From: a virus
Lineage: Duplodnaviria > Caudoviricetes
Strand: one strand, 5' to 3'
DNA: 52,430 nt
IMG/VR virus record: IMGVR_UViG_3300034065_000062
Span: 1 to 52,430 of that record
Of the stretch, positions 7,892-52,430 are shown piece by piece. Each line of letters begins with the position of its first letter. Position 1 is the stretch's first letter. Position numbers and translations under genes: made by a program. The notes under the pieces are model-generated. The model was not told the origin of the DNA. It did not search any database and saw only the letters and a list, made by a program, of their open reading frames with translations.

Positions 7892-8001
7892 ATCTATCTC
7901 CCCTTATAACAAAATGTATTATACCATGAATTTCCCTATTTGGGGCTGATATTGATAAATATACTTAATAACAGTTTCAGCTTACCAATTAGGAGAACTA
8001 C

Positions 8002-12671: not shown

Positions 12672-12675
12672 TAAT

Positions 12676-12701
12676 AAAAGCCCTGAAATTCAGGGCTTTT
12701 T
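12676..12701. terminator. Bidirectional rho-independent terminator
   Basis: AAAAGCCCTGAA-A-TTCAGGGCTTTTT between convergent genes. Confidence 0.85.
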
Positions 12702-12702
12702 C

Positions 12703-13635: not shown

Positions 13636-13661
13636 TAAATTCCCTTAAATTATTATTAATT

Positions 13662-13697
13662 TATTTATAGTTAAAATCAGCCTTTAAATTATAAATA
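13662..13697. promoter_or_regulatory. Divergent pair of TATAAATA late promoter boxes
   Basis: Minus-strand box at 13662-13669 and plus-strand box at 13690-13697 between divergent genes. Confidence 0.7.
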
Positions 13698-13734
13698 TAC
13701 CAAGAGGTATTTTTAAACACTAGGAGAATTAATA

Positions 13735-17148: not shown

Positions 17149-17175
17149 AATCAACTCATTGAGGAAAAGTGAATC

Positions 17176-26361: not shown

Positions 26362-27861
26362 TTATGCCTTCATTATTACCGTTTTGATTTCAGGATTTCG
26401 TTCATCCCTTATAATCAACTCAACTGGATAACCCCAAAGAAGTTTCACATACTGTAAAGTTTTCTCGGCATTACCACGATGTAAACTGCGTTTCAAGAAT
26501 GGTTTATATTCCAATGTTAAAGTACGATCACTTTTCATTTTAGCACCACTCACAACAATATCGGGTGTATAGTTAATTGAATTATGTTGGCGGGCAAATG
26601 CACCACGCATATTTCGATATCCCATATCATCAGCAATTTCACTGACAACACCAGCTCCTTTTTGAATTTCAAGAGTCATCATTTTATACTTACGCATTAA
26701 ATTAGGAGTCATGAACTGCTCAATAAAGCTTTCATCATTGTAATCAAATGCAGCATTCTTGACTTCTGTTCTCCAATCCTTACCAACCAAATTAGGGAAC
26801 CATTCCTTATCTTCTGCTGTTGGATCTTCACAAACCCGACGAACTTCCTTAAGGATGTCAAAGCCCAATGCATATGGATTAAAGTTACCATCATAGTGTT
26901 TGGAATGCATATTAGGTTGATATACCACACCTGAATGTAAATGCAACCAGGCAAGCTGTGCATCAGGTGAAATCAAACCACGCTTTTCCAACTCATCCAT
27001 AATATAGAAGTGAGTGAAAGTAGCCATACCTTCATTCAAAACTTTGGTATGTTTCTGATTGTAGAAGTATGCATTAATCTTACAAATGATCCGGCAAATT
27101 TCCCGTTGCCATTGCTTCATATTAGGTGCATTCTTATAGATGAAGTATAACAAATTTTCTTCATCTTCGATATCCACATCTGTGGTATCATCCTTCTCTT
27201 TTTTCTCTTCTACTACAGAAGTTGTCTTGATAACAATATCTAGTTCCTGTTGTTTCTCATCTTCTTTTTTAAGAATTAAAGCTTTTGCTTCAGCTTCAGA
27301 AACACGGGATTTATACTTACGTTGACTCTTATCAACCGAGTGTGTTGCCAAAGTATGGGCAGCATCCAAGATAAGTTCAACCTCATCTTCACCATATTTT
27401 TCTTCACAATCACGAATGAATGCTTTTGCAAATACTACATAGTCAATAATAGATGAAGCATTAGTACGTTCTTTAAACAGGTAATTATTTTTGAATACTG
27501 TATTATGACCAATACCTGCATGTGCCATAACCAAAGTCTGAGCAACTGCATTGTTATCTTCCATCAAATAGTTGATAACTGGGTTAGTATTAATAACTAA
27601 TTCAAGAGCCAATCCCATTTTACCTTTTTGATACTTGGCATTATTCCGCATGAAGTCTTTACCAAAACTCCAGTGGGAATACATTTCTTTAAGACCAGTA
27701 CTTGAATAGGCATCAAGCATTTGTTCGGCCGATACTACCTCAAAGACATTTGGGTAGGTATCGATTTTTAAATCATTATGACCAATGTCTTCAATGTGTG
27801 ACCAGATTTCCCCTAGAAGTTCTGGGGTCCAATCATCACGGGATGTAATAAGATGTGTCAT
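26362..27861 (-). CDS. SpoVR/YcgB family protein
   Basis: YSHWSFGK, ELVINTNP, AHAGIGHN.VFKNN, TKVLNEGMA.F.H and NPYALG motifs. Confidence 0.92.
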   Translation of the reverse strand: MTHLITSRDDWTPELLGEIWSHIEDIGHNDLKIDTYPNVFEVVSAEQMLDAYSSTGLKEMYSHWSFGKDFMRNNAKYQKGKMGLALELVINTNPVINYLMEDNNAVAQTLVMAHAGIGHNTVFKNNYLFKERTNASSIIDYVVFAKAFIRDCEEKYGEDEVELILDAAHTLATHSVDKSQRKYKSRVSEAEAKALILKKEDEKQQELDIVIKTTSVVEEKKEKDDTTDVDIEDEENLLYFIYKNAPNMKQWQREICRIICKINAYFYNQKHTKVLNEGMATFTHFYIMDELEKRGLISPDAQLAWLHLHSGVVYQPNMHSKHYDGNFNPYALGFDILKEVRRVCEDPTAEDKEWFPNLVGKDWRTEVKNAAFDYNDESFIEQFMTPNLMRKYKMMTLEIQKGAGVVSEIADDMGYRNMRGAFARQHNSINYTPDIVVSGAKMKSDRTLTLEYKPFLKRSLHRGNAEKTLQYVKLLWGYPVELIIRDERNPEIKTVIMKA

Positions 27862-30221: not shown

Positions 30222-32183
30222 TTAGTTTTTACGGTTGTTTGCCCACCATGCAACAATCAAACGTACTTGTGCTGCTGTGTAACCTTTGGTAATCATACGA
30301 GACATAAAATCATCATGTTTCTTCTGTTCATCAGATGAACCTTTTGGATTGAAAGAAACAATCGGCATAATGTCTTGAGTTGCTGAAAACATTTTCTTTT
30401 CAATAACGATCTTGATTTTTTCATATTGATTCCATGCTGGTGCACGACCTTCATTTTTTGCACGATGACGTAATACATAGTGAACGATGTCATTACGGAA
30501 ATCTTTTGCATTAACAATTGAAGCACTCTTTTCAAGTTCTTCCAAGCGTGAATTCAAGTTGTTACGATCCAACAAGACATGGGTTTCTGGATCACGTACA
30601 GTTGTTTCATCGATCCATGCTTCAGCAAACAAGCAGTAACGTTCAAACATTGTCTGACCGAAATCTGAGTAAGATTCCAAGTATGCAATACGAAGTTCTT
30701 TGTCAATAAATTCAAAGAAGCGTGGTTGTACCCATGATTTGATGTAATCAAGATAACGTTCATGATCTTCTTGTGGAAGATGTTCACGTTTTAATGCTTC
30801 TTCAAGAACATACATCAAGTCAATTGGATTGGCCTGAACTTCTTCTGGGCGCAAGTTAAAAGTTTGTGAAAGGATTTTGAATGCAAAACGAGTTGATAAT
30901 CCATTCATACCTTCATCAACACCTGCAGCTTGTTTGTATTCTTCATACGGTTTAGCCATTGGCATTGTATCTTTTACATTTTCACCATTATAGACTTTCA
31001 TCTTGGCGAACAATGTGCTATTTTCCGGTTCACGAAGACGTGTAAGAACCATAAATTCAGCAAGGGCTTTCAATGTTTCTGGTGCACAAGGTGCATTATG
31101 AAGACTTGATACGGTCAACATTTTTTCATAAATCATACGTTCTTCATCAGTACGTAAGCAATATGGAACGTTAACAATATAGACCCGATCCAAGAAAGCT
31201 TCATTGGATTTATCATTACGGAATTTAAACCATTCTGCTTCATTTGAGTGAGCGCAGATAATACCAGTATAAGGCATAGCTGGAATATTTTCAGTACCAT
31301 TGTAGTTGTGTTCTTGTGTTGCCATCAACAATGGATTCAATGTTTTGATATTGCTTTTAAACATTTCAGCAAATTCCATGAAACATTGGCTTGTACGATT
31401 CAAACCACCTGAATAGGAATAGCTGTATGGATGATTCTGTGAATAAGTTTCCAATTTACGGATATCAGTTTTACCAATAAGGACTGAAACGTCTTGGTTA
31501 TTTTCATCACCCGGTTCAACCTTCATGATACCAATTTGTGAATCTTTGTTTGGATACATTTTAACAACAGTAAATTTGGTCCAGTCACCATCAAACTCTT
31601 TCAGTTTTTCTTGAGCCCAACCAGAAGATACAGTGTTCAAATAACGAACATCGATACCAAAGGTTTTTTGAAGTTCTTCACCATGTTCATGTTTGTTGAA
31701 CAAGCCAAGTGGGCTTTCAAACATAGGTGAAATTTGTAGCTCTGGATTCTTTTCTGAAGAATCTTTAAGAACGTAGATTGGATGCTGTTGCATCAATTCT
31801 TTGAGACGTTCAACTAATGAAGATTTTGAAGAACCGACTGGTCCTTTAAGATACAAAATCTGTTTGGATTCTTCCAAGCCTTGTGCGAAATGGCGGAAGT
31901 ATGCAACTAAACGTTCAATGGTTTCTTCAATACCATAGAAGTCTTTGAATGCTGCATATTGACGAATTTTTTTATTTGAGAAGATGCGGGAGAGATGTGC
32001 ATCTTGAGAAGTATCAATAACAGTTGGTTCACCAATTGCTGCTAACATACGCTCGGCGGCATTTGCATATGCCATTTTATCAGTTTTGCACAAGTTGAGA
32101 TATTCTTCAATTGTCATTTCTGTATTGGTAGCAAATTTCTTTGCAAAGGTAGATTTAAAACTATTACTAAGTTTCGTATTCAT
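30222..32183 (-). CDS. prkA: PrkA/YeaG AAA+ serine protein kinase
   Basis: AAERML.AIGEP, KQILYLKGPVGSSKSS Walker A, EPGDENNQD, EF.EMFK, AHSNE, GLSTRFAFK. Confidence 0.93.
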   Translation of the reverse strand: MNTKLSNSFKSTFAKKFATNTEMTIEEYLNLCKTDKMAYANAAERMLAAIGEPTVIDTSQDAHLSRIFSNKKIRQYAAFKDFYGIEETIERLVAYFRHFAQGLEESKQILYLKGPVGSSKSSLVERLKELMQQHPIYVLKDSSEKNPELQISPMFESPLGLFNKHEHGEELQKTFGIDVRYLNTVSSGWAQEKLKEFDGDWTKFTVVKMYPNKDSQIGIMKVEPGDENNQDVSVLIGKTDIRKLETYSQNHPYSYSYSGGLNRTSQCFMEFAEMFKSNIKTLNPLLMATQEHNYNGTENIPAMPYTGIICAHSNEAEWFKFRNDKSNEAFLDRVYIVNVPYCLRTDEERMIYEKMLTVSSLHNAPCAPETLKALAEFMVLTRLREPENSTLFAKMKVYNGENVKDTMPMAKPYEEYKQAAGVDEGMNGLSTRFAFKILSQTFNLRPEEVQANPIDLMYVLEEALKREHLPQEDHERYLDYIKSWVQPRFFEFIDKELRIAYLESYSDFGQTMFERYCLFAEAWIDETTVRDPETHVLLDRNNLNSRLEELEKSASIVNAKDFRNDIVHYVLRHRAKNEGRAPAWNQYEKIKIVIEKKMFSATQDIMPIVSFNPKGSSDEQKKHDDFMSRMITKGYTAAQVRLIVAWWANNRKN

Positions 32184-34535: not shown

Positions 34536-34787
34536 TTAATTAGGTGGTTTATGTAGATGATCAATACCCATTTGAATATCGAAATCACTGTAGCCTTGCA
34601 TCTCTTTAAGAGTTTGTTCTTCTTCAGCTACAGCTTTATCTAATTCGGCTTGACGGATACGTCTTATCTCTAATGCGATTTCATAATCCGTATATCCATC
34701 TAATTCCATGGACATACGAATATATGATTCTTCTGTGGCCTGATCGGGTTTTAATGCCGACCAGACTTTAGAAAGCCAATTCCACAT
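34536..34787 (-). CDS. Hypothetical protein (83 aa)
   Basis: Start overlaps the Ro60 stop; repeated GY(T/S)D.(E/D)I motif. Confidence 0.65.
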   Translation of the reverse strand: MWNWLSKVWSALKPDQATEESYIRMSMELDGYTDYEIALEIRRIRQAELDKAVAEEEQTLKEMQGYSDFDIQMGIDHLHKPPN

Positions 34788-36397
34788 TAGAAGGACTGAA
34801 TCAATTGTGGTGCTGCTGAATCAAAACCAGCGATATCCAACATACCAGGATCTTTTGGATCGGCAATTGTAAACTTGGTTACTGATGTACCACAAACAAT
34901 CAATTTAGCATCTTTGACATGCTTTTGACGGTAACGTGATAATGCTTCAACAGGTTGCATCTTACCAGCATATGTTTCATTGTCGGTAATAACAACAAAT
35001 TTACTTACATTATCCATACCATTGTCAAGTGCATGACGCATTGGCAATGAGCAATCAGTTGAACCCCAATTGAATTTTTGCATAACAGCCAATACAGCAT
35101 CTAAGCGCATTGATGGAGAGATTTTTAATTCACTCATTCTGTTATTGAAACCACCAATCCAATGGTTAGGTTCACGCTTAGCAACAGCCAAAGCCATAAC
35201 TGCAGCAACTTCAGCTGAAGAAAGGTTTGGAGCACTTGAAACACTTGAGCTCCACATAGAACCAGAACAGTCAACACCAATCAAATGACCAAGGCCAGTT
35301 GATTCAATGAAATTGAATGATTCATAGAAAACATCATTCAATGCATCAAGGATTTGTTGAGATGGAGTCCAAGTTAATGAACCCTTATCACCATGACCGG
35401 TTTTGTATTGGTTGAATGCATTCAAAATAGTGATTGGGTGTACTCGACCACTCTTGATTGCTTCTACATCAGTTAACTTACCAACAATAAGTTGAAGATC
35501 ATTTGACATTGGCTTGATTACACCAATATTAGTCAACTGACCAAGCTTACGGATAAGTGCTGTCATACCCATTGTGTTAACAAGAGCCGACATAACTGCT
35601 GGGTTACGATGCAATTCAGTTGGAATCATTTCCCATGTGATATCAGGATTTGATTCAATCAATTTGATTGCAGTCTTAGCATCAACACCACGCTTCAATG
35701 TTTCAAAGTCAATAAGCAATTGTGGAACTGCTGTATTAGCTTCAATAGCTTCGGCACCCTTTACAGAGTAACGGAACAAAGCAGATTGAACATCATTAGT
35801 TGGTTTAACATGAGCTAAACGCAAGACGTCACGATGTGCCCAACCATTTCGTGATTGGTACTTTAACAATTGAACTGCCAACTTGTCTTCTTTACGCTTT
35901 GTGTACCAGGAAGCAATACCACGTTTTGCAGCGGCATTCCACTTACCAAGTTCATCAATTGCGGCAACAAATTGGAACAAATGAGTACCGATACGGCAAA
36001 CTTTATGCAAGGATGCGTATGCTGCGGCAACAGTTGCTTCATCACCATTGATTGCACATAGTGCAAGAGCAAAGACGGCTGAATCATTTTTAGGTGCACG
36101 GCCAGCTTGTGAGATTTCCACAATACGATTTACTGTTTTGATACCATCAAGTTTAATACAAGCCAATACATTCTTAGCAGCATCTTTGGTAAGTTTTTCA
36201 ACTGATGCATAGTAGAATGGTGATTCACTACCCAAGATTAGGAAACGATCCAAGTAGGACCATGCATCTAATTTGAATACGAATCCACCCGCATGGTTTT
36301 TAACCATTTCGGCTTCACGACCTGAAAGAGGTTGTGTTTGTGGTGTTACTGTTTTTGTTGGCTTTGTTGATACGGTGTCTGAATAGCTAAATGACAT
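34787..36397 (-). CDS. rsr: Ro60/Rsr (TROVE + vWA) RNA-binding protein
   Basis: NHAGGFVF..D....LDRFLILGS, RIGTHLFQF, KYQSRNGW.HRD.LRL.H, VHP, DCSGSM MIDAS, TDCSLPM, ITDNET, IADP.D.GMLDI.GFD. Confidence 0.95.
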   Translation of the reverse strand: MSFSYSDTVSTKPTKTVTPQTQPLSGREAEMVKNHAGGFVFKLDAWSYLDRFLILGSESPFYYASVEKLTKDAAKNVLACIKLDGIKTVNRIVEISQAGRAPKNDSAVFALALCAINGDEATVAAAYASLHKVCRIGTHLFQFVAAIDELGKWNAAAKRGIASWYTKRKEDKLAVQLLKYQSRNGWAHRDVLRLAHVKPTNDVQSALFRYSVKGAEAIEANTAVPQLLIDFETLKRGVDAKTAIKLIESNPDITWEMIPTELHRNPAVMSALVNTMGMTALIRKLGQLTNIGVIKPMSNDLQLIVGKLTDVEAIKSGRVHPITILNAFNQYKTGHGDKGSLTWTPSQQILDALNDVFYESFNFIESTGLGHLIGVDCSGSMWSSSVSSAPNLSSAEVAAVMALAVAKREPNHWIGGFNNRMSELKISPSMRLDAVLAVMQKFNWGSTDCSLPMRHALDNGMDNVSKFVVITDNETYAGKMQPVEALSRYRQKHVKDAKLIVCGTSVTKFTIADPKDPGMLDIAGFDSAAPQLIQSF

Positions 36398-42438: not shown

Positions 42439-42935
42439 TTAGTTTTTTAATGGTACTTTATTTGCATATTCTTCTATTGCTTTAATATCACTAGCTACTA
42501 GCTTTCCTTTTGCAAGAAGCATATATTCACCATTAGGGGTTTGTACCCATTTAATAACTTGTTCATAGGATGATCCTTTACAATACCATGTTGCTAATTT
42601 TTCATATAATGATTTTCTTGATTCAATAGCACCATTTTTATTATTAATATCAAACATTATTATATCTGGGTTTAGTTCTCTAATTTTAGGAACCATTGAA
42701 TTAAATAGTGCGCCGAATACTTTGGCAGCCATTTTTTTTCAGCTGCTACTGTCCATTCCCCATCTCTGGTAAAACCAAAATCAATAAGGCTATAGTCTTT
42801 ACTTAATTTAAGTTCATATTCATCTAAATGAATTTTATATTTATGATCTTCTAAGTCAAATATACCATAATAAGTATTATCAACTTTTTTCCATTTAACA
42901 TCTGGATTGGTATCAAAAATTTCATTTAAAAGCAT
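42439..42935 (-). CDS. Hypothetical protein apparently split by a frameshift in an A8 run (42732-42739)
   Basis: Track ORFs 42672-42935 and 42439-42732 join into one ~165-aa ORF if the run is A9. Confidence 0.55.
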
Positions 42936-43894: not shown

Positions 43895-45370
43895 TCAATA
43901 GGTCACTAAGAAATTTTCAAATGACCAAGTATTAGTTTTATTTAATTCAGGTTTGAATAGCATATTGCGTTCATCAAGTGGAGTCCAATCTGATTGGATA
44001 CTTGCGATCGGCCCAAGATAAGGTTTAGCCACTTCAAGAATTTCTTCAAATGGTAAATCTTCTGGTTCTTTATATCCCTCTTTTGGATTATTTAACATCC
44101 AAACAATAACACCTAATAAAGAAGCAACTACTTGTACTGATGTTGCACTTTCATTAGGAATTAATTCACGGGCTTCATTGATGTCTAATTGACTACCATA
44201 CCACCAAGCATTACAGCCATGTCCCATTAGAAGAACACCAAGTTCATCACGGCCACTAACTATTTCATCTTTGACAATACGTTTAGCATGTTGCATTTCT
44301 AATTCTTGGCCACGGAATTCATGGACAGAAACAATAGCACAATCAGCTGGTTGATATGTATAGTGAACAGTTGGACGGAAAGTGACATTAGTACCATTAC
44401 TTACAGAGAAGTATTCGGAAATAGTAACAGCTTCAGAGTGCTGTACTAACATACCATTATAACTACCACCACGTGGAACCCATGATTTAATTAATGTAGC
44501 AACACCTGGTTGTGTTAAGAAGATAGCATTACGAGGACCTGATTGATGAGCAACACCATTCTCTGGAAGTTTATCTTCATGTGTACCCCAACCTAATTCA
44601 GATGGAGCACGACCTTCTGCCCAGAAGCCTTCACAGCTCCAAGTATTAGTAAACTCACCCATGACTTTCGGTCGATCGATAACTTGTGTATCACGTTCAG
44701 CAATGTGTACAACTTTGGTACCAGTCTTCTCCATAAGTTTTGCCCATTCTTCACGGGACTTAGGAACTTCAGTTTTCATACCCATTGCTTCAGCAATATC
44801 TAATAGAGCAGCTTTTGTAAAGTGGGTAACTAAACCTGGATTTGCACCATGAGTAACACAGGAAGTTGCGGCTCCTTTATTTTTATATGGAGCAACAGCT
44901 TTACGTATTTCTTGATGAGCAAAGTAAAGAGTACGTTCTTCCATTTTAGGAATAGATTCATCTGGTTCATCTTCCCAACGTTCTATACTGGTATCACAGT
45001 ACATAACATCATGATCAAGACACCATTTAACAATAGCAATACCATCAATATTAAGACTAACATTGATGAGTAAATCTCCAGCACTTAAGTGTTCTGAGAG
45101 AGTAGAATCTAAATTACTTTTAACAATTTTTAATGGGATGTATTTGATATCTGTATCACTATGGCGGGTTTTAAACAATTGAGCATGTTCACCAGCTTCA
45201 ATGACAGTGATTTGATTTGGGTTGATCCCAATGTGACGTAATACTAAAGGAAGGATGGCTTGACCGACGGAACCGTATCCGATGATTAAAATGCGACCTT
45301 TATGATCAATGTACTTTTTGTGCAAAGGCGCAGATAGTGTTGTTGTTTGTGCTATTTCGTGGAGCTTCAT
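43895..45370 (-). CDS. hss: Homospermidine synthase
   Basis: IIGYGSVG Rossmann motif, HGANPGLV.HF, VHIAERDTQ, NTWS.EG, ELGWGTHE, H.EA.TI, RPTVHY.Y.P, G.DELGVLL. Confidence 0.92.
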   Translation of the reverse strand: MKLHEIAQTTTLSAPLHKKYIDHKGRILIIGYGSVGQAILPLVLRHIGINPNQITVIEAGEHAQLFKTRHSDTDIKYIPLKIVKSNLDSTLSEHLSAGDLLINVSLNIDGIAIVKWCLDHDVMYCDTSIERWEDEPDESIPKMEERTLYFAHQEIRKAVAPYKNKGAATSCVTHGANPGLVTHFTKAALLDIAEAMGMKTEVPKSREEWAKLMEKTGTKVVHIAERDTQVIDRPKVMGEFTNTWSCEGFWAEGRAPSELGWGTHEDKLPENGVAHQSGPRNAIFLTQPGVATLIKSWVPRGGSYNGMLVQHSEAVTISEYFSVSNGTNVTFRPTVHYTYQPADCAIVSVHEFRGQELEMQHAKRIVKDEIVSGRDELGVLLMGHGCNAWWYGSQLDINEARELIPNESATSVQVVASLLGVIVWMLNNPKEGYKEPEDLPFEEILEVAKPYLGPIASIQSDWTPLDERNMLFKPELNKTNTWSFENFLVTY

Positions 45371-45441
45371 TTGTTAATCCAGATGATAAAAGTATATCAT
45401 ATTTATTGAATTAACAAGGTGATGTAGAATTTAGTAAGATT

Positions 45442-45515
45442 TGGTGCTCTGTACCGGTTACAATCCGATGCCTAATCCATACCAGGGATTTGTACTGTCA
45501 TTATACTAACAGAGC
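45442..45515 (-). tRNA. tRNA-Thr(GGT), atypical T-loop
   Basis: Cloverleaf, loop CUGGUAU, encoded CCA; T-loop AUUGUAA. Confidence 0.75.
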
Positions 45516-45521
45516 TTTGTT

Positions 45522-45593
45522 TGGAACCCAACTGCAGAGTTGAACTGCATCAACAGGCTTAGAAGGCCCATGTCCGAATCCCTCGGGTCGGGT
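45522..45593 (-). tRNA. tRNA-Arg(TCT), non-canonical short D-arm
   Basis: Acceptor ACCCGAC/GUUGGGU, loop CUUCUAA, T-loop UUCAACU, CCA. Confidence 0.75.
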
Positions 45594-45597
45594 ATTG

Positions 45598-45828
45598 TTA
45601 TGTGCTAAGTTTATTAAACTTATCTGTTGCCATTTTTAATTCACGATGAAGTTTATCCTGATTTCTACGGGCCTTATTCATCTGTACTTGAACAGCACCA
45701 ATTATTAGTTCAGCTTCTTTATATTTCTTACGAGCAACTTTATATTCCTGTTCGGCTTTATTATAAGCAGATGTTTTGGCTGCTTTAATAGCTCGTTCTT
45801 TAGCTGCGGCTTCATGATCAAATTGCAT
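45598..45828 (-). CDS. Small coiled-coil protein
   Basis: 76 aa, Ala/Lys-rich helical sequence. Confidence 0.65.
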   Translation of the reverse strand: MQFDHEAAAKERAIKAAKTSAYNKAEQEYKVARKKYKEAELIIGAVQVQMNKARRNQDKLHRELKMATDKFNKLST

Positions 45829-45830
45829 AA

Positions 45831-46028
45831 TTATTTTTGATAGACCGTTCTTTTACCGGTGATTTCACCAGTCTGAGCATTTTTAATAGTAACAGTTTGT
45901 TTAGAGACTTTCTTGGAATTAATGATACCACCAAGTTTATGATCACGATCATACATATCTCCAAGTTTTAATGGAGAACCAGTAACGACCCCTTTAAAAG
46001 GATCCGGCATTATTTCTCTAACTTTCAT
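45831..46028 (-). CDS. Hypothetical protein (65 aa)
   Basis: GAGG RBS, MKVREI N-terminus, TATAAATA at 46057-46064. Confidence 0.7.
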   Translation of the reverse strand: MKVREIMPDPFKGVVTGSPLKLGDMYDRDHKLGGIINSKKVSKQTVTIKNAQTGEITGKRTVYQK

Positions 46029-46068
46029 ATTACACCTCTAAAATAAGATTATCTCTTATTTATATGTT

Positions 46069-46142
46069 TGGCCTGTCAAGTAGGAATCGAACCCACATCA
46101 AAGCGTTTGGAGTGCCTTATTCTACCACTGAACTATTGACAT
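46069..46142 (-). tRNA. tRNA-Trp(CCA)
   Basis: Loop CUCCAAA, G73, CCA; D-stem GUUC/GAAU (A24); A31-C39 mismatch. Confidence 0.85.
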
Positions 46143-46148
46143 ATAGTA

Positions 46149-46343
46149 TTACTTTTTACGTTCTTTAGGAAAGAACCCAGCACAGCATTCATCTGTTAAA
46201 CTGGCTATTCCTTGTTTATGACCTTCAAGAGATTTACCACAAACTGATATAGTTTTAGTTTTACCAGTAGCAGTTTGTGTCATGACAACATCAAAATCTT
46301 GACCATGCATTACAAAGTCAAATGTGTATTGTGTAGCTAACAT
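46149..46343 (-). CDS. Hypothetical protein (64 aa)
   Basis: GAGG RBS before MLATQY; the track's longer version overlaps tRNAs. Confidence 0.65.
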   Translation of the reverse strand: MLATQYTFDFVMHGQDFDVVMTQTATGKTKTISVCGKSLEGHKQGIASLTDECCAGFFPKERKK

Positions 46344-46358
46344 AATAACCTCTAAAAA

Positions 46359-46432
46359 TGGAGTCGGGTACCGGAGTTGAACCGATCTAAGTGATTTTGC
46401 AGACCACTGCATGGCCGATGTGCTAACCCGAC
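46359..46432 (-). tRNA. tRNA-Cys(GCA)
   Basis: Loop CUGCAAA, U73, CCA. Confidence 0.85.
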
Positions 46433-46438
46433 ATTGTT

Positions 46439-46512
46439 TGGAGTCCCTGGATGGTAACGCGCCACCTTCCATAGTTTTGCAGACTATCGCATTACTTTTA
46501 TGCTACAGGGAC
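46439..46512 (-). tRNA. tRNA-Cys(GCA), second copy, atypical T-loop
   Basis: Loop CUGCAAA, U73, CCA; T-loop CGCGUUA. Confidence 0.75.
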
Positions 46513-46518
46513 ATTATT

Positions 46519-46620
46519 TGGCAGAGGTGGAGGGAATTGAACCCCCATCGAAGGTTTTCCTAAAAATACTATTACGAATATTTTTAGGAGACCCCTATAC
46601 TGCCATTGTACTACACCTCT
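46519..46620 (-). tRNA. tRNA (Trp-type body) with a 28-nt hairpin inserted in the anticodon loop
   Basis: Canonical acceptor, D and T arms, G73, CCA; loop reads CUCC[UAAAAAUAUUCGUAAUAGUAUUUUUAGG]AAA. Confidence 0.7.
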
Positions 46621-46628
46621 ATAATTCT

Positions 46629-46701
46629 TGGCACCCAATGAAGGAGTTGAACCTTCTTACTCAGATTTCGAAGACCTAAGACCGGTTCCGCCGGATCGGG
46701 T
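46629..46701 (-). tRNA. tRNA-Arg(TCG), non-canonical short D-arm
   Basis: Acceptor ACCCGAU/AUUGGGU, loop CUUCGAA, CCA. Confidence 0.75.
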
Positions 46702-46709
46702 ATAAATTC

Positions 46710-46784
46710 TGGTTCCCACTGATGGATTTGAACCATCGACCCACGCGTTATCAACACGGCGCTCTACCACTGAGCTAAGCGGGA
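46710..46784 (-). tRNA. tRNA-Ile(GAT)
   Basis: Canonical D and T arms, loop UUGAUAA, CCA. Confidence 0.85.
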
Positions 46785-46788
46785 ATAG

Positions 46789-46871
46789 TAACAACAAATT
46801 GCTTTTTAGGGCAGGAGCAGTTGAGGGCGTTGTCTTAAAAGGATAATCCTCTGTCGCAAATCCGGTTGTTA
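46789..46871 (-). ncRNA. Small Y-RNA-like element inside the tRNA array
   Basis: Terminal UAACAAC/GUUGUUA stem; AACCG-N16-UUAUCC at 46841-46867; strand is less certain because one alternative stem favours the plus strand. Confidence 0.55.
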
Positions 46872-46936
46872 AATTCTTAATTCTTTACTATAACTAATAA
46901 ATATTCTTATGTAAACATTTATTTATGGAGATTCCC

Positions 46937-47203
46937 ATGACAGCACCAGTTTTAACACCAGTACCAATGTATCCAATTGGATCAGTTATTTATGTTGTAT
47001 CTGCAGCATCTTTTGGTATTGCTATTGCTACAATTACAGCTGTTGATGTTGCAAGTGTAAATCCAACTGCACCACCAGTAATAACATATTCAGTTAGATT
47101 TTCTAACCCAGTACGTTCAGCAAATATTCAACAGTTTGATTCATCAATGGTATTCCCTGATGTAACTACTGCAGTTGCTGCATATGCTCCACTTATTAGT
47201 TAA
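46937..47203 (+). CDS. Hypothetical protein (88 aa), possible virion protein
   Basis: GGAG RBS before the ATG at 46937; TAAATA box upstream; only + strand gene in the tRNA region. Confidence 0.65.
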   Translation: MTAPVLTPVPMYPIGSVIYVVSAASFGIAIATITAVDVASVNPTAPPVITYSVRFSNPVRSANIQQFDSSMVFPDVTTAVAAYAPLIS

Positions 47204-47205
47204 GA

Positions 47206-47386
47206 TATATAAAGTTGTAGTTTGAGACAATACGGTGGGAGTTGCACCACACATTAAGGCCCTGTCCGGGCCTTTTCTTATCTATTAGAAGACATATTTC
47301 AATACAGTCTTTAACCCGTCAAAGTCAATACTATATTGCCAAACCAACCTGTTGCTCGAGTTGACGTGCTGTTACAACTTTATATA
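47206..47386 (-). ncRNA. tRNA/tmRNA-like structured RNA enclosed by a 14-bp terminal stem
   Basis: TATATAAAGTTGTA inverted repeat; inner GGCAAUAU/GUAUUGUC stem, T-arm-like GG-UGCAACU-CC and two internal hairpins. Confidence 0.5.
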
Positions 47387-47444
47387 ACCTAAAAATTACT
47401 CTGTTCGCGTTACGCAAACGAACTACAAAATAGATACAAGAAAT

Positions 47445-47572
47445 TGGTGGTGACGGAAGGGATCGAACCTCCACTAGCCTGTTATGAGTAGGATAATCAA
47501 TAAGCGACCGGTTGAGTTAACAACAAAAAATGCAATCGATGTTTTACTGTGCTGCCATTACACTACATCACC
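47445..47572 (-). ncRNA. tRNA(CAT) carrying a 54-nt Y-RNA-like insertion in the anticodon stem
   Basis: Acceptor GGUGAUG/CGUCACC-A-CCA, D and T arms and loop CUCAUAA all intact; insert carries AACCG-N12-UUAUCC. Confidence 0.75.
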
Positions 47573-47660
47573 ATTTAAATTTTTATCAAAGAACTATTAA
47601 AATCCCAAGATTCAAACTATAAAGAATTATACCATACAGTTTGAATCTTGTATACATCAT

Positions 47661-47990
47661 TTAAACTTTATCTGGATATTTACTATCTAAAAAATCGATA
47701 TAAGCATGTGGGCTCATACCAGGTTCTAATACTTCAACATTCTTGAAACCATTGGCTTCAGTGATTAAACTTTCAGATGCATCAATGGCACCAGCATATT
47801 TGCGGAAACCGGGTTTATTCATCATCTCACCAGTAGCAGGATCAATGGAACCCCATTCAGTCCAATCTGTTTTACTACGATTGTCAATAGGTTCACATGC
47901 ATAAGTTTTACCAGTACGATTTGAATAAACAATAAATCGTCCAGTGTCATCAGTATTAGTTAGGAATTTTGTTCTTAGTTCAGGATTCAT
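47661..47990 (-). CDS. Hypothetical phage protein (109 aa)
   Basis: DTGRFIVYS.RTGKTY..EPI...WG..DPATG motif-rich ORF. Confidence 0.75.
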   Translation of the reverse strand: MNPELRTKFLTNTDDTGRFIVYSNRTGKTYACEPIDNRSKTDWTEWGSIDPATGEMMNKPGFRKYAGAIDASESLITEANGFKNVEVLEPGMSPHAYIDFLDSKYPDKV

Positions 47991-48011
47991 ATAAGGCCTT
48001 ATAGGTTAGGC

Positions 48012-48110
48012 TTAACGAATCAACCCCAGAGCGACTAGCTCTTTACGTGTCTCATCAGTTAAGCGTTGCAATTCATTTATTAGTTTTATTACATATTCTA
48101 ATGAGTACAT
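48012..48110 (-). CDS. Putative micro-ORF (32 aa)
   Basis: AGGTG RBS, MYSLEYVIKLINELQRLTDETRKELVALGLIR*. Confidence 0.45.
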   Translation of the reverse strand: MYSLEYVIKLINELQRLTDETRKELVALGLIR

Positions 48111-48125
48111 TTGGGCACCTATATA

Positions 48126-48611
48126 TTATGATGGTTGTTTAATTTTGTCTAATTCTTTTCTTACCCAAACTCTCGCATCTTTTTGATTATCAAAAATTGC
48201 AATGGGTTTACTACTTTCTGCCCATACTTTCTGTAATATAGGTTTCATTAAATTTGCTGCTATAACTTCATCATCTTTAATTACAAAAGCTGCACATGAT
48301 GAAATGGAATCCTTCATATATTGACTATAGACTTTTAATGCATCTGGTCCCATTTGAACATCTTTTTTAAATGTAGTAATTGCACCAAAAATTTTTGGAA
48401 TTTCTACCGTTTTAATTACTTCATCTCTTATTTCAGTAAGGTGAACAAAAAACTCTTTATTAAATGGACCAGTATATTCATGATAGATAATATCAGATTC
48501 CCACCATCTAGACTGTTCTCCATGTGGTGCAAATGGTGATGTTTTATTAGCATTTAATTTGCTGATAATTTCAGTCCATGATTGTATTGTATTAGGTTTT
48601 TTCTTTTTCAT
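48126..48611 (-). CDS. Hypothetical protein, possibly STAS/SEC14-like fold
   Basis: TGPFN.E...AAFV...IF.N..DA..W pattern; weak family call. Confidence 0.65.
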   Translation of the reverse strand: MKKKKPNTIQSWTEIISKLNANKTSPFAPHGEQSRWWESDIIYHEYTGPFNKEFFVHLTEIRDEVIKTVEIPKIFGAITTFKKDVQMGPDALKVYSQYMKDSISSCAAFVIKDDEVIAANLMKPILQKVWAESSKPIAIFDNQKDARVWVRKELDKIKQPS

Positions 48612-48672
48612 GCTAATATTTATTGCCTGGGAGGCATAATATAACAGTTTTATTGCATGAAGGGTTTGGAAA

Positions 48673-48748
48673 TAAACCTATAGTGGTAGTCGAAAACCAC
48701 ATTGCCAGCTATTAATCCGTCCGCGGAGACATCTCAAATATAGGTTTA
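48673..48748 (-). ncRNA. tRNA-like ncRNA, family copy 1
   Basis: 10-bp terminal stem; UUUGA...GAUUAAUAGCUGGCAAU + T-like arm GUGGU-UUUCGACU-ACCAC; core shared with 50515-50590. Confidence 0.6.
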
Positions 48749-48761
48749 CTTTTTTCATCAT

Positions 48762-48783
48762 AAGTGGGGAAATTTCCCCACTT
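48762..48783. terminator. Hairpin/terminator
   Basis: AAGTGGGGAAATTTCCCCACTT palindrome after the 48803 gene. Confidence 0.55.
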
Positions 48784-48802
48784 TCATCATACTAACCTTC
48801 GA

Positions 48803-49561
48803 TTACACTGGATAGGTTGCAGAAACTGCTGGCCCATAGGTAAGGGTACCTTCAGATTTTTCACCACGGTGATTTTTGTCACAACATTCACCTTTGATAT
48901 TACGGAAACGTAATTCATCAATGGTTTGGCTGTTAATAAGTGCACGAGTGGTATTACCATCATCGACAATCATGTGTTGTGTCTGTGCTGCGGCTAATGC
49001 AGATGCTGCAGATGCAACTTGACCCGCCAATGTAGAAGCTGCAGTGGTTTGCGATGCTGCTAATTGAATTGCTGCAAGAGTTGCATTAAAATTTGCATTA
49101 GTACTTGAAGTTAAAGCTGCAAGTGCTGTTGCATTACTAAAGTTTTGTGATTGACCTGCAATGAAATATGCTGTATCTTGTGCAACTATACGATCAGCAC
49201 TGTTGGCCACATCCGATGAAACTCCCCAAGCACCTCTATTAACATCAACACGTGTATCACTTGCTTCTTTTGCAACTTCTCTACGTGCATCTGATGATTC
49301 TTCTGCGGTTTCTCTACGAATATCTGATTGACCATGAAGTACTTGACTCATATCTACTAAACCTGTTACGGTTCCTGTTACTATATCTGCCATGATTATT
49401 TCCTTTAAAGTATCCGGAATTAACGAGTTCGTATCACCGGAAGTTGAACTTGTAATAGGAGGTACAACAGTATTTAAAATCTGTTCTGGAGAAACAATTT
49501 CTACGGGGGTAGAAACATCTAGAATTGGAACTGAAGGTTCAGTATTTTGAATAACGATCAT
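48803..49561 (-). CDS. Ala-rich coiled-coil hypothetical protein
   Basis: Possible starts at 49561 (AGGTG RBS) and 49393 (AAGGA RBS, MADIV); SD.RRE repeats; C-terminal ECC. Confidence 0.75.
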   Translation of the reverse strand: MIVIQNTEPSVPILDVSTPVEIVSPEQILNTVVPPITSSTSGDTNSLIPDTLKEIIMADIVTGTVTGLVDMSQVLHGQSDIRRETAEESSDARREVAKEASDTRVDVNRGAWGVSSDVANSADRIVAQDTAYFIAGQSQNFSNATALAALTSSTNANFNATLAAIQLAASQTTAASTLAGQVASAASALAAAQTQHMIVDDGNTTRALINSQTIDELRFRNIKGECCDKNHRGEKSEGTLTYGPAVSATYPV

Positions 49562-49570
49562 ATCACCTAT

Positions 49571-49671
49571 TAAACGTAACCTCATAAGAGGCTTTTCAGC
49601 AATCGCTGCTGTATGCGTTTCATGCCGGGCATGAAATACGTTTAAATCCGCGGAAGTAACTTTCTTACTTC
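49571..49671 (-). promoter_or_regulatory. Structured 5' leader (4-way junction plus upstream hairpin)
   Basis: UAAACGUA/UACGUUUA closes three hairpins directly before the RBS; TATAAATA at 49688-49695. Confidence 0.5.
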
Positions 49672-49754
49672 ATTCAATCGTTATTTGTATTTATAGAAAT
49701 GGAATAAAATTCTAAAAAAAAACTTATAATATTAAAAATTATTTTAAATATTTT

Positions 49755-49830
49755 GCGAAGACTAATATGATTGTCTCATCACTTTTTGCCAGCCCGCGGA
49801 CGAATTTACCAGCAAATTATTAGCCCTCAC
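49755..49830 (-). ncRNA. Unidentified small RNA (3-way junction)
   Basis: 13-bp terminal stem with several G-U pairs, two inner hairpins, TATAAATA at 49837-49844. Confidence 0.55.
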
Positions 49831-49882
49831 AAGATATATTTATAGATTTTGAAAATTTAGTAGTGTTTCTTCATGGAAATAT

Positions 49883-49955
49883 TGGCAGGGGTAGTAGGAA
49901 TCAAACCTACGGGTATCTGGCTCAGAACCAAATCCAATCTTCATATCATACCCCA
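49883..49955 (-). tRNA. tRNA-Gln(CTG), atypical D-arm
   Basis: Loop UUCUGAG, T-loop UUUGAUU, CCA. Confidence 0.7.
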
Positions 49956-49961
49956 ACTGTT

Positions 49962-50037
49962 TGGTACCCAGGGTCGGACTCGGACCGACATACTCCCACT
50001 TGTAAGGAGGGCGCTTGAACCTCTCAGCTACCCGGGC
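49962..50037 (-). tRNA. tRNA-Val(TAC)
   Basis: Loop CUUACAA, A73, CCA. Confidence 0.85.
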
Positions 50038-50045
50038 ATAAATTC

Positions 50046-50118
50046 TGGTAAGGGTGGAGAGAATCAAACTCTCTGACATCTGGCTCAAAACCAAATTCGA
50101 TTTTCATATCACACCCCA
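50046..50118 (-). tRNA. tRNA-Gln(TTG), atypical D-arm
   Basis: Paralog of 49883-49955; loop UUUUGAG, CCA. Confidence 0.7.
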
Positions 50119-50122
50119 ACTG

Positions 50123-50479
50123 TTACTGCTTAATTGTATTTTTACAATTATAAAATCTTTCAGACTTAACAACATTAAACTTAGTCAACCATTTCTGTTC
50201 AGTTTTTCTAATTAATGTTGCATCTTCAATAAACTCTAATATTATTCTTTTAAATTGAGTTATTCCATAATGCTCAAATACTCTTTTAAATCTTGATCCC
50301 GATCCTCGATAATCATCATTACAAATACCTTTATGACTACCAATATAAAACATATTTTCTGGTAAACATTTCCACATGTAAATAAAACCAGCATAAGACT
50401 CAGGTCTAGTGACATTGAGTTCTTCATAGTTATCTAATAAGGGATTTGTATGTGTTATGATAAGACGTTTCATAAACAA
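50123..50479 (-). mobile_element. Short GIY-YIG (Seg-like) endonuclease
   Basis: GFIYMW...FYIGSH...Y.GSG...E...FYN; TATAAATA at 50498-50505; inside the tRNA array. Confidence 0.75.
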
Positions 50480-50514
50480 TAATTAGTATTAAACTATTAT
50501 TTATAAAATAATTT

Positions 50515-50590
50515 TGGCTCCCGAGGCGTAAGTCGAAGTACGCATTACCAACTATTAATCGAGGGCGCGCCGGCCTGATCAAACTCGAGA
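50515..50590 (-). ncRNA. tRNA-like ncRNA, family copy 2, with encoded CCA
   Basis: Acceptor-like UCUCGAG/CUCGGGA-G-CCA; T-like arm GCGUA-CUUCGACU-UACGC; no canonical D or anticodon arm. Confidence 0.6.
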
Positions 50591-50598
50591 ATTGATTC

Positions 50599-50673
50599 TG
50601 GTGGTGATAGTTGGAGTCGAACCAACGTAGCCTACTTTATGAGAGTAGTTCATAACCATTCTGACATATCACC
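50599..50673 (-). tRNA. tRNA(CAT): elongator Met or Ile2
   Basis: Loop CUCAUAA, paired G1-C72, A73, CCA. Confidence 0.8.
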
Positions 50674-50674
50674 A

Positions 50675-51355
50675 TTATTTCTTTATACCTAAAACCCAAC
50701 CATCATTTAGATAGCTATCAATTTCAGATATTTGTATTCGTTTTGTTATTCCTTCTTTTGATACACATTTATTTCGTTTACCAAAATTTGAATTCTTTTC
50801 ACCTTGCTGGTGATTACTTTTCCTAAGAGTATTTATTCTTTTAATATTAGTATCTACTGAATTAACTTTTTTAATTGCTTCTGAGGAAAAATAACTAACT
50901 GATTTTCTACCATCTTTATATTGTTGCTTAAGAGTAATTGACATATTTACTGATTTTTTCTTAACCCAATCAGGATCAGTATTTTTTAATTCTATCTGTT
51001 TTAAATGAGAGTTTATAGCACGATCTTTTAATTGTTGTTTTGATAAAAATTTTGTAATAAATTCCCAACCACCTTCACCACCAATTTTAAGATTAATACA
51101 TAAAGATTCTTTTAAAATATCTTCATTAACTAATTGTGCTTCTCTAACTTTAAGTTCTGCTCTTGAATTAAGAAATTCAAGTATTTCTTTTTTATGGTTC
51201 TCATCGCCATATTTGCGTCTTGAGTAACCCAAAATTTTCTCACTTCCAAGATATCCATCTTCCAAGTTACTAGTTGAATGCATACCAATATAAAACTTAC
51301 CAGTAATTAAACAAGTAGTTTTATAGATATAGTGATACTTCTTTTGTTTGCGCAT
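50675..51355 (-). mobile_element. GIY-YIG Seg-like homing endonuclease
   Basis: HYIYKTT..ITGKFYIGMH...YLGS...E...NL..GG.GG; likely start MRKQKK at 51355 (AAGGA RBS); TATAAATA at 51375-51382. Confidence 0.85.
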
Positions 51356-51405
51356 TTTGTATTCCTTAAACATATATTTATAAGAATAGTACAAAATGGC
51401 GAATG

Positions 51406-51474
51406 ACCCACCACCCAGAGTCGAACTGGGCATTCAACGTTCGTAGCGTCAAAGTTATGTCCCATAATGGTGAG
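51406..51474 (-). tRNA. tRNA-Arg(ACG), non-canonical short D-arm, no encoded CCA
   Basis: Acceptor CUCACCA/UGGUGGG, loop CUACGAA, T-loop UUCGACU. Confidence 0.7.
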
Positions 51475-51958
51475 ATTGTTTTTCTATTAACCTTTCAAGA
51501 GGAGCAACATATTCTATCCAGGTCACATCTTGCACAAAGTCAGGATGTTTAAATATTGTACCTACAGTTTCAAATCCTTGATTTATAAAATAAGGACCTA
51601 CTTCTGTTTCTCTATCCTGCGGAACCAATTCAATTAATTCTTTAGCATCAGGATATTTAGCAATAAGGATTTCTGCTAATCTTTTTAAAGCAAGACTTGA
51701 ATAACCTTTTCCCTGTTCATCAGGAACTATTCCATGCCATGCTAATATAATACGGTTATCAACTAGATAATATCCAGTCAATCCAATAGGTTTATCATAC
51801 CAATTAAGTATTAGAAATTTTTCATTATCATCTAGTTCGGGATTCTCTAAAGTATAAAGACAATCTTCTTCAACTTCAGCAGATCGTTTTTCCCAAATAG
51901 ATTTAAATCCACGATAAGCAAATGGATTACTTATTAATTTTTCTAAACTTACGGACAT
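51455..51958 (-). CDS. GNAT-family N-acetyltransferase
   Basis: IGLTGY...LAWHGIVPDEQGKGYSSLAL...YF..QGF acetyl-CoA-binding motif. Confidence 0.75.
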   Translation of the reverse strand: MSVSLEKLISNPFAYRGFKSIWEKRSAEVEEDCLYTLENPELDDNEKFLILNWYDKPIGLTGYYLVDNRIILAWHGIVPDEQGKGYSSLALKRLAEILIAKYPDAKELIELVPQDRETEVGPYFINQGFETVGTIFKHPDFVQDVTWIEYVAPLERLIEKQSHHYGT

Positions 51959-51976
51959 ATATTATCCTATGTGTTA

Positions 51977-52050
51977 TGGTGCTTCTTGTAGGAATCGGAC
52001 CCACATTTATCGGTAATCGGCCGATCATTCTACCATTGAATTAAAGAAGC
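51977..52050 (-). tRNA. tRNA with aberrant anticodon loop CCGAUUA (nominal GAT; Thr-like body)
   Basis: Full cloverleaf and CCA, but C33 and U37. Confidence 0.6.
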
Positions 52051-52056
52051 ATTGTT

Positions 52057-52131
52057 TGGTGCCCAGACACTAGAATCGAACTGTGATCTATTCCTTACAA
52101 GAGAATCGTTCTACCATTGAACTATAAGGGC
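52057..52131 (-). tRNA. tRNA-Thr(TGT)
   Basis: Loop CUUGUAA, CCA. Confidence 0.8.
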
Positions 52132-52143
52132 ATAATTTAAAAC

Positions 52144-52219
52144 TGGCTGACCAGGCAGGGCTCGAACCTGCGACAAACGGATTAACAGTCCGCTACTCTA
52201 CCAACTGAGTTACAAGTCA
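52144..52219 (-). tRNA. tRNA-Asn(GTT)
   Basis: Canonical; loop CUGUUAA, G73, CCA. Confidence 0.9.
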
Positions 52220-52226
52220 ATTGTAT

Positions 52227-52305
52227 TGGCGATCCGTATCGGATTTTAACCGATGATCTTCTCCGTGACAGGGAGACGCATTGGGACGGGCTATGCTAAC
52301 GAACC
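52227..52305 (-). tRNA. tRNA-Asp(GTC), atypical D and T loops
   Basis: Loop CUGUCAC, G73, CCA; T-loop UUAAAAU. Confidence 0.78.
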
Positions 52306-52328
52306 ATATATTTATAAAATATTATGTG

Positions 52329-52403
52329 CTCCGGGAACTGGGAACGATCCAGTCTAATCATGATTAACAGTCATGCGGTTGCCACCAAGGCGCCTCCCCC
52401 GGA
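52329..52403 (-). tRNA. Atypical tRNA-Asn(GTT) without CCA, inside an extended stem
   Basis: Loop CUGUUAA; flanks ATTATGTGC/GCACATAAT extend the acceptor stem (52321-52412). Confidence 0.6.
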
Positions 52404-52430
52404 GCACATAATACTTCTACTACTCAATAA

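Follow-up and report, generated by a model that had tools for sequence, protein, structure and literature searches.

Three tRNA-Arg genes of an uncultured peat phage share a compact core without the 8-9 linker that recurs in other phages and in bacteria

Introduction

Can the tRNAs of an ordinary amino acid be built on a core from which the two bases linking the acceptor and D stems are missing, and do such genes look like working decoders? This question was raised by three genes for arginine transfer RNAs (tRNA-Arg), with anticodons UCU, UCG and ACG, on the minus strand of IMG/VR virus record IMGVR_UViG_3300034065_000062. The entire record, 52,430 bases long, was analysed and is referred to here as the window. 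It is estimated to be about 15% complete and is a fragment of an uncultured jumbo phage from peat. The three genes lie in a minus-strand tRNA cluster that spans from about 45.4 kilobases (kb) to the window end.

Results

The three genes share a zero-linker cloverleaf

A preliminary description of the locus had claimed that the three genes lack the 8-9 linker and carry covarying 4-base-pair (bp) D stems with NGGAN loops, followed by an anticodon stem of 6-7 bp. Base-by-base read-out of the minus strand agreed with the coordinates, the missing linker, the three D stems and the loops. In all three genes, the 7-bp acceptor stem runs into a 4-bp D stem with no base in between, positions 8-9 being absent. 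The D arm is followed by 1-2 nucleotides (nt), an anticodon stem of 6, 7 and 7 bp (UCU, UCG and ACG, respectively), 2-3 variable nt and a normal 5-bp T arm.

tRNA-Arg(UCU) (45522-45593, minus strand) is 72 nt long including an encoded CCA; its segments measure 7/4/5/4/2/6/7/6/3/5/7/5/7 nt and are followed by U73 and the CCA. Its D arm (45574-45586, minus) has the stem CCGA/UCGG right after acceptor base 7 and the 5-nt loop GGGAU, and its anticodon arm (45553-45571, minus) has a 6-bp stem and the loop CUUCUAA, with the anticodon at 45561-45563. tRNA-Arg(UCG) (46629-46701, minus; 73 nt including an encoded CCA) is made of segments of 7/4/5/4/1/7/7/7/3/5/7/5/7 nt, then G73 and the CCA. The stem CCGG/CCGG again starts immediately after acceptor base 7 and closes the loop CGGAA (46682-46694, minus), and the anticodon arm (46660-46680, minus) consists of a 7-bp stem and the loop CUUCGAA, with the anticodon at 46669-46671. 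tRNA-Arg(ACG) (51406-51474, minus) measures 69 nt to the discriminator; its segments of 7/4/5/4/1/7/7/7/2/5/7/5/7 nt end with U73 and the CCA is not encoded. Its D arm (51455-51467, minus) is a stem of A/U pairs only, UUAU/AUAA, placed directly after acceptor base 7 and closing the loop GGGAC, and its anticodon arm (51433-51453, minus) has a 7-bp stem and the loop CUACGAA, with the anticodon at 51442-51444. The T loops are UUCAACU, UUCAACU and UUCGACU, each on a 5-bp stem.

All three genes therefore keep several canonical traits, namely a 7-bp acceptor stem, a 5-bp T stem, a 7-nt T loop of the T-Psi-C type and a 7-nt anticodon loop with U33. Two canonical traits are absent from all of them: the two unpaired bases 8-9, and a 5-bp anticodon stem with a single base 26. 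ARAGORN in mitochondrial mode (-mt) called the three genes (the ACG gene as 51405-51474) and placed the anticodon at position 31 instead of 34. For the UCU and UCG genes, the minimum free energy (MFE) and centroid folds were exactly the zero-linker cloverleaf; in the MFE fold of the ACG gene, a fifth pair (G-C) formed inside the D loop and acceptor pair 7 was open.

The claim of covariation was upheld when the three sequences were aligned: all 66 pair cells were paired, including every D-stem pair, although the sequences differ, and 17 of the 22 pairs differed on both sides, a result reached by none of 500 shuffles. Pairing was only 27-47% when partners were slid. The three genes are 40-51% alike pairwise in unconstrained columns, indicating that their common shape does not come from a recent duplication.

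The compact core recurs in viral contigs

A pattern derived from the three genes (GGA, 13 bases, CUNCKAA, 13-14 bases, GUUCRACUC) was used to scan viral contigs and gave at least 122 matches at at least 117 loci. Matches were called compact when the acceptor stem had at least 6 of 7 pairs at zero offset, the D stem at least 3 of 4 and the T stem at least 4 of 5. Among the 122 matches listed, 71 were compact (65 unique sequences), and 68 of these 71 had all four D-stem pairs. Another 47 were canonical-like, their acceptor strand being displaced upstream by 4-5 bases in 41 and by 1-2 bases in 6, and four were of neither type. The compact matches listed had the anticodons UCU (28), ACG (25), CCG (9), GCG (6), UCG (2) and CCU (1), and 45 of the 71 encoded the CCA, as did two of the three window genes. 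Their host loci ranged in G+C content (GC) from 0.30 to 0.68, and most contained many other tRNA genes. The anticodon GCG, with G34 rather than A34, was found in compact genes of loci L078, L079, L095, L097 and L186; G34 is uncommon for bacterial tRNA-Arg.

Whole sets of isoacceptors were present at some loci. L097, a 42.6-kb IMG/VR contig with an array of more than 30 tRNAs, had three compact genes (UCU, GCG and ACG, at 5870-5938, 7311-7379 and 9121-9189); default ARAGORN missed all three and called no other Arg gene in the stretch examined. L147, L160 and L162 had two compact Arg isoacceptors each.

The three window genes and the 65 unique viral sequences were combined in an alignment of 68 sequences. 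Pairing was found in 98.0% of its 1428 cells, a value which the scan pattern and the pairing filter partly imposed in three of the helices, together with the conservation of the fixed parts. Pairing fell from 98% to 32-48% when partners were slid by 1-3 columns, and 20 of the 21 pairs changed on both sides. The covariation score was 1.048, compared with 0.266 for shuffles (none of 500 reached it, in a test that is inflated by kinship between sequences) and 0.11-0.20 for slid partners. The four D-stem pairs all changed on both sides, each with several Watson-Crick types: the first, abutting the acceptor stem, was CG in 49 sequences, GC in 17, AU in 1 and UA in 1, and pair 9-19 was UA in 34, CG in 29 and GC in 4. 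The sixth anticodon-stem pair, which lay outside any filter, was CG in 25, GC in 14, UA in 13, AU in 7, UG in 3, GU in 1 and unpaired in 5. A seventh pair was present in 48 of the 68 sequences. The length to the discriminator was 69 nt in 36 sequences and 70 nt in 32, with 3 or 4 nt after the sixth pair.

The preliminary description had proposed a distinct functional structural class. Its structural half was borne out by the recurrence in 65 further unique viral sequences and by the covariation of the four D-stem pairs and of the sixth anticodon-stem pair; its functional half is suggested by sequence features discussed below.

A covariance model, R1, was built from the three window genes, and the UCU gene matched it at 88.4 bits. 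No fourth compact member was detected by R1 in the window, where the next match, at 34.7 bits, was a tRNA-Cys whose D region is canonical. A 20-letter D-arm pattern common to the UCU and UCG genes had six viral matches, with no tRNA among them. Peat metagenome runs contain the window DNA, and the pieces obtained from contigs of four peat DNA runs were all identical to it in the phage-specific parts that they covered, leaving no natural variation against which compensation could be tested.

Compact genes in cultured phages and bacterial chromosomes

Several searches of cultured phages returned little: megablast of 44000-52430 gave only a 70-nt tRNA match, and blastn with the window UCU gene, L085, L148 and L098 gave no match. 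Two other compact members did give blastn matches when used as queries. One of them matched six phage records (Rhodobacter, Ruegeria, Roseobacter and Phaeobacter phages), in which the matching sequence was annotated as tRNA-Arg once and unannotated five times. A covariance-model search of phage genomes, which the preliminary description had suggested as a check, matched compact Arg genes in the phages RcXuper and DSS3_MAL1 at 49.7-62.8 bits. In RcXuper, R1 matched a compact Arg(ACG) at 56.0 bits and an Arg(CCG) at 49.7 bits in gaps of the annotated array (4848-4917 and 6441-6510 of L457, which is 8000-20000 of the record). Both are unannotated, and UCU was the sole annotated Arg gene in the 12-kb stretch viewed. 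DSS3_MAL1 carries a compact Arg(ACG) and a compact Arg(CCG), both annotated as tRNA-Arg. The Corynebacterium phage C3PO (L471) has a compact Arg(UCU) at 42746-42815 of the record, annotated as tRNA-Arg.

Two annotations in these phages deserve mention in their own right. A 72-nt gene of RcXuper annotated as tRNA-Ser(cga) (L457 3040-3111; R1 26.4 bits) has a zero-linker D arm and the loop CUUGCAA, which make the annotated identity look doubtful. The compact gene of C3PO is annotated on the strand opposite to two neighbouring tRNAs and to the strand that reads Arg(UCU).

The compact class is not confined to phages. Prokaryote genome contigs were scanned with the same pattern, and 40 of the 125 matches listed were compact. 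They came from many Kribbella assemblies, all Arg(CCG), and from metagenome-assembled genomes labelled Cyanobacteria, Myxococcota, Planctomycetota and others. Kribbella pratensis (G046) has a compact Arg(CCG) at C3:1635801-1635869, approximately 1.8 kb past a short array of tRNA genes that are second copies, in addition to a canonical Arg(CCG). Within the genus, R1 gave a match of 45.7-67.2 bits and 68-70 nt in 48 of the 61 genomes sampled, the canonical Arg(CCG) scoring about 34 bits, and the differences in the acceptor stem of the compact gene between species were compensatory. The presence of a compact match in 48 of 61 genomes indicates that a cellular lineage maintains the frame, in the form of an accessory copy. 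The actinobacterial compact gene is flanked by ordinary metabolic genes (fucosidase-like, FAD oxidase and hydrolase), and no link to a dedicated tRNA-using enzyme was seen in these flanks.

Detection by standard tools

The expectation that standard scanners may miss these genes was confirmed for the Rfam tRNA model RF00005 and half confirmed for ARAGORN. RF00005 has a gathering threshold of 29 bits; Arg(UCG) scored 24.4 bits, and Arg(UCU) and Arg(ACG) were not reported even at E<=1. At the gathering threshold, RF00005 found none of 24 compact genes in 20 of 60 member loci, while 147 other tRNAs were found there. Default ARAGORN called only the UCG gene of the window, as an 80-nt gene (46629-46708) with a different 5' boundary, and called 41 of 65 compact class members elsewhere. 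In mitochondrial mode, it assigned two of the three window genes to the D-loop-replacement type, which lacks a D stem.

Arginine identity and decoding capacity

In each of the three genes, the D loop contains GGA and the second anticodon base is C (C35). The preliminary description had read the GGA as G18, G19 and A20. A scan run with position 20 free (117 loci) is consistent with this reading: of the 66 compact matches, 63 had A there and 3 had C, the name 'position 20' for this base resting on homology to G18 G19 A20. A20 is described as the main determinant of the Escherichia coli arginyl-tRNA synthetase (ArgRS), together with C35, position 36 (U/G36) and A/G73 (PMC9976931). Across the 68 aligned members, the discriminator was G in 39, A in 21 and U in 8.

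As judged from sequence, the anticodons UCU, UCG and ACG can together read all six Arg codons, ACG being probably read as ICG. The 32 long open reading frames (ORFs) of the window contain 368 Arg codons: CGU 179 (49%), AGA 97 (26%), CGA 39 (11%), CGC 27 (7%), CGG 15 (4%) and AGG 11 (3%). At loci with another Arg gene called by ARAGORN, the compact anticodon was not duplicated in 25 of 27 within the stretch examined. Compact genes occupy slots of tRNA arrays a few bases from their neighbours: tRNA-Arg(UCU) is 6 nt upstream of tRNA-Thr(GGU) (45442-45515) and tRNA-Arg(UCG) is 8 nt downstream of tRNA-Ile(GAU) (46710-46784), with similar spacings in other phages.

Other features of the tRNA cluster

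The window has a GC of 32-39%. Default ARAGORN called 11 tRNA genes in the cluster, and RF00005 reported 14 genes at or above threshold in 44000-52430. Several genes of the cluster have unusual structures. A second tRNA-Cys(GCA) (46442-46512, minus; Rfam 49.2 bits), missed by default ARAGORN, adjoins the first (46359-46432) and has an unusual T loop. The tRNA at 46522-46620 (minus; RF00005 48.5 bits) has about 28 additional bases in the anticodon loop; these are predicted to form a long A/U hairpin (fold z = -3.8), and the loop minus the hairpin would be CUCCAAA (Trp, CCA). To our knowledge, splicing of such short tRNA inserts is not known from bacteria. A 125-nt tRNA-like gene (47448-47572, minus; RF00005 38.3 bits) has normal acceptor, D and T arms and about 60 bases in place of the anticodon arm, with a fold no better than shuffles. 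Two tRNA-Gln genes (CUG and UUG; 49883-49955 and 50047-50119, both minus; RF00005 29.6 and 25.7 bits) have 6-bp anticodon stems and a shrunken D region without GG, and are a second kind of compact tRNA within the cluster.

Two ORFs inside the cluster (50675-51433 and 50123-50479, both minus) have N-terminal motifs which, by eye, resemble those of GIY-YIG homing endonucleases, and we take them to be candidates for this family. ORF 50675-51433 had no Pfam match at E<=0.001; its later in-frame starts, at 51394, 51373 and 51355, would not overlap tRNA-Arg(ACG). At the other end of the same gene, the stop codon TAA (51455-51457) of a GNAT-like ORF (51455-51958) falls within the 3' strand of the D stem. 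Outside the cluster, the window encodes a Ro60/TROVE protein with a vWA domain (34787-36397), a PrkA-type AAA kinase (30222-32183) and a SpoVR-like protein (26362-27861), all on the minus strand. These three genes are unusual phage cargo, and some 9 kb separate the Ro60 gene from the tRNA cluster.

Discussion

Collectively, the position of the genes in the array, their unduplicated anticodons, the coverage of the six Arg codons and the covariation support the view that the compact genes are working decoders. We consider it probable, from sequence features, that the three window genes are working elongator tRNA-Arg genes on a compact core, like the tRNA-Pyl of Methanomethylophilus alvus and mitochondrial tRNA-Ser(UCN). 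In the three-dimensional logic that we propose, the additional anticodon-stem pairs would replace the 26/44-45 layers and the loss of D-loop bases would eliminate the 8-14 and 15-48 layers. As a consequence of these lost layers, the D stem would lie one or two layers nearer to the elbow and its 5' end would meet acceptor base 7 without a linker. G18-G19 would still dock on the T loop, so preserving the L-shape and the distance from the anticodon to the CCA. The host or phage ArgRS would charge the three tRNAs via A20 and C35, and together they would decode all six Arg codons of phage genes during infection.

A number of observations weigh against this interpretation. The folding energies of the three genes barely beat those of shuffles (z = -0.86, -1.16 and -1.40); because folding energy is not distinctive, support rests on covariation and homologues. 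The homologues, in turn, were collected with a pattern that fixed the GGA, the anticodon-loop frame and the T loop, and with a filter that demanded pairing in three helices. When GGA was omitted from the pattern, the viral sample obtained contained 91 unique well-formed Arg tRNAs, of which only 3 were compact: the distance from base 1 to C32 was the compact 28 nt in these 3, 30 nt in 8 and only 31 or 32 nt in 72. Among viral Arg tRNAs, compact ones are a small minority. No orthologues of the three particular genes were found among the relatives and cultured phages searched. The relatives were reached via the saccharopine-dehydrogenase-like gene in the neighbourhood, which gave 56 loci (53-71% identity); their Arg tRNAs are all canonical, and R1 gave only matches of 15.6-36 bits and 71-72 nt in 45 of the 56 records, 11 short loci being left out. 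The discriminators of the window genes are U, G and U, two of the three being U73 whereas arginine identity is described as A/G73 (PMC9976931). tRNA-Arg(ACG) has no encoded CCA, and its first 20 nt overlap the last 20 nt of the GNAT-like ORF. No RNA dataset was listed for 45400-46800. Finally, the Kribbella compact gene is an additional copy and may not be essential there.

Alternatively, the RNAs could be made but not decode, acting as tRNA-like decoys or sponges against nucleases or defences that target tRNA-Arg, or in another non-translational role. Phage tRNAs that neutralise tRNA-targeting defences are documented (PMC11464382, PMC11555353), the compact core drops many canonical core positions, and the actinobacterial gene is redundant with a canonical Arg(CCG). 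However, the features for charging and decoding are intact (7/5 branch, U33, 7-nt anticodon loop, A20, C35 and often an encoded CCA), the compact gene usually supplies an anticodon otherwise absent from the array (25 of 27 loci), and the three window genes cover the six Arg codons. Decoy and decoder roles are not mutually exclusive, and we regard a purely non-decoding role as improbable.

Doubts about the genes or their fold carry less weight. Scores under the RF00005 threshold, the ORF overlap and missing CCA of one gene, and the failure to find orthologues of these exact genes could be read as signs of decaying pseudogenes or of chance tRNA-like remnants of D-region deletions. Such decay was already disfavoured by the 22 of 22 intact pairs in each of three genes at 40-51% identity, by a 69-70-nt frame that 65 other unique sequences share, all helices showing compensatory changes, and by the 48 of 61 genomes of a bacterial genus that retain it; it is the explanation to which we give least credence. 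A different fold, either a canonical cloverleaf in which a 2-nt linker precedes a tiny D hairpin or a 'rewired' layout other than a cloverleaf, might be suspected from the MFE fold of the ACG gene, which departs in detail from the drawn structure, and from the ARAGORN labels without a D stem. It is very improbable given that the D-stem pair abutting the acceptor covaries, that sliding partners by 1-3 columns abolishes most of the pairing, and that the zero-linker cloverleaf is both the MFE and the centroid fold for UCU and UCG.

If the compact genes are working decoders, the core could be a neutral variant or an adaptation. An adaptive origin, as a counter-defence or take-over device, is conceivable although rather unlikely: tRNA-Arg of phages and mobile arrays would escape host enzymes that modify the core, as well as host or rival-phage factors that recognise or cut it, by discarding U8, A14, R15, 16/17, A21, 26 and 44-48 while retaining charging via A20 and C35. 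Whole isoacceptor sets would be kept on this frame, as may be the case for the three genes here, three in L097 and two each in L147, L160, L162, RcXuper and DSS3_MAL1. Were this true, compact tRNA-Arg would be ready scaffolds for engineered orthogonal tRNAs.

Descriptions of the shrunken frame have so far concerned tRNA-Pyl and mitochondrial tRNA-Ser(UCN); here it is used by the tRNAs of an ordinary amino acid, in phages of varied GC and on bacterial chromosomes. Should these tRNAs be charged and take part in translation, a zero-linker core would be naturally acceptable to bacterial ArgRS, EF-Tu, RNase P and ribosomes, and tRNA censuses of phages based on covariance models would be undercounts, as with the two unannotated Arg genes of RcXuper. 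Cultured phage-host pairs permit direct testing of the compact design. Steinberg and colleagues are said to have selected mitochondria-like suppressor tRNAs in E. coli.

In our full-text literature search, no account of phage or bacterial elongator tRNAs with a zero linker or a compact core was found, although supplements (Mukai et al. 2017, phage genome papers) could contain such structures. Reviews present non-organellar tRNAs as canonical cloverleaves and list tRNA-Sec, tRNA-Pyl and allo-tRNAs as exceptions (PMC7609411, PMC5389517). In its outline, PMC7609411 devotes no section to compact elongator tRNAs from phages or bacteria, and PMC9897764 concerns tRNA fragments rather than this class. 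Canonical bacterial and phage tRNA-Arg (RF00005; for example in the distant relatives L012, L022 and L026) share with the compact genes the CUNCKAA loop frame, the T arm, the 7-bp acceptor stem, the D-loop GGA and the array position. They differ by the presence of the 8-9 linker, a D loop of 7-11 nt, an anticodon stem of 5 bp with base 26 and a length of 74-77 nt with the CCA, and by 31-32 nt from base 1 to C32 instead of 28. Allo-tRNAs (8/4 or 9/3 tRNAs; Mukai et al. 2017, PMC5389517) are also non-canonical cloverleaves with longer anticodon stems that came from metagenome mining of bacteria and phages. They are described with an altered acceptor/T split, long variable arms and D arms like those of tRNA-Sec, whereas the present class keeps the 7/5 branch and shrinks the core.

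The closest likenesses are to two compact tRNAs, a type defined after PMC7609411 by a linker of 0-1 nt, a D loop of 4-5 nt, an anticodon stem of at least 6 bp and a variable region of about 3 nt, all of which are found in the three window genes. The tRNA-Pyl of M. alvus, which belongs with a pyrrolysyl-tRNA synthetase (PylRS) class without the N-terminal domain, shares the zero linker, a 6-bp anticodon stem, a tiny D loop (4 nt, compared with 5 here), a short variable region and the 7/5 branch (PMC7609411). It has an anticodon stem with an unpaired A; an internal mismatch occurs in some class members and in none of the window genes. Other tRNA-Pyl species are described as lacking G18, G19 and T-Psi-C, whereas the phage Arg tRNAs keep the D-loop GG and a UUCRACU T loop (PMC7609411). 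tRNA-Pyl is archaeal, has a CUA anticodon and is charged by PylRS; the present class has Arg anticodons, occurs in phages and bacteria and would be charged by ArgRS. The anticodons UCU, UCG and ACG, the GG and the T-Psi-C-type loop set the three window genes apart from tRNA-Pyl. The mammalian mitochondrial tRNA-Ser(UCN), or 'type I' (PMC7609411), is alike in its anticodon stem of 6 bp, its small D loop and its variable region of 3 nt; it also retains G18, G19 and T-Psi-C, and its L-shape is reported to be canonical-like. Its linker has one nt and it is a single, organellar isoacceptor, whereas here the linker is zero and all visible phage Arg isoacceptors are of this type, presumably working with bacterial translation factors. 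The phage Arg class combines the zero linker of M. alvus tRNA-Pyl with the elbow bases of mitochondrial tRNA-Ser(UCN).

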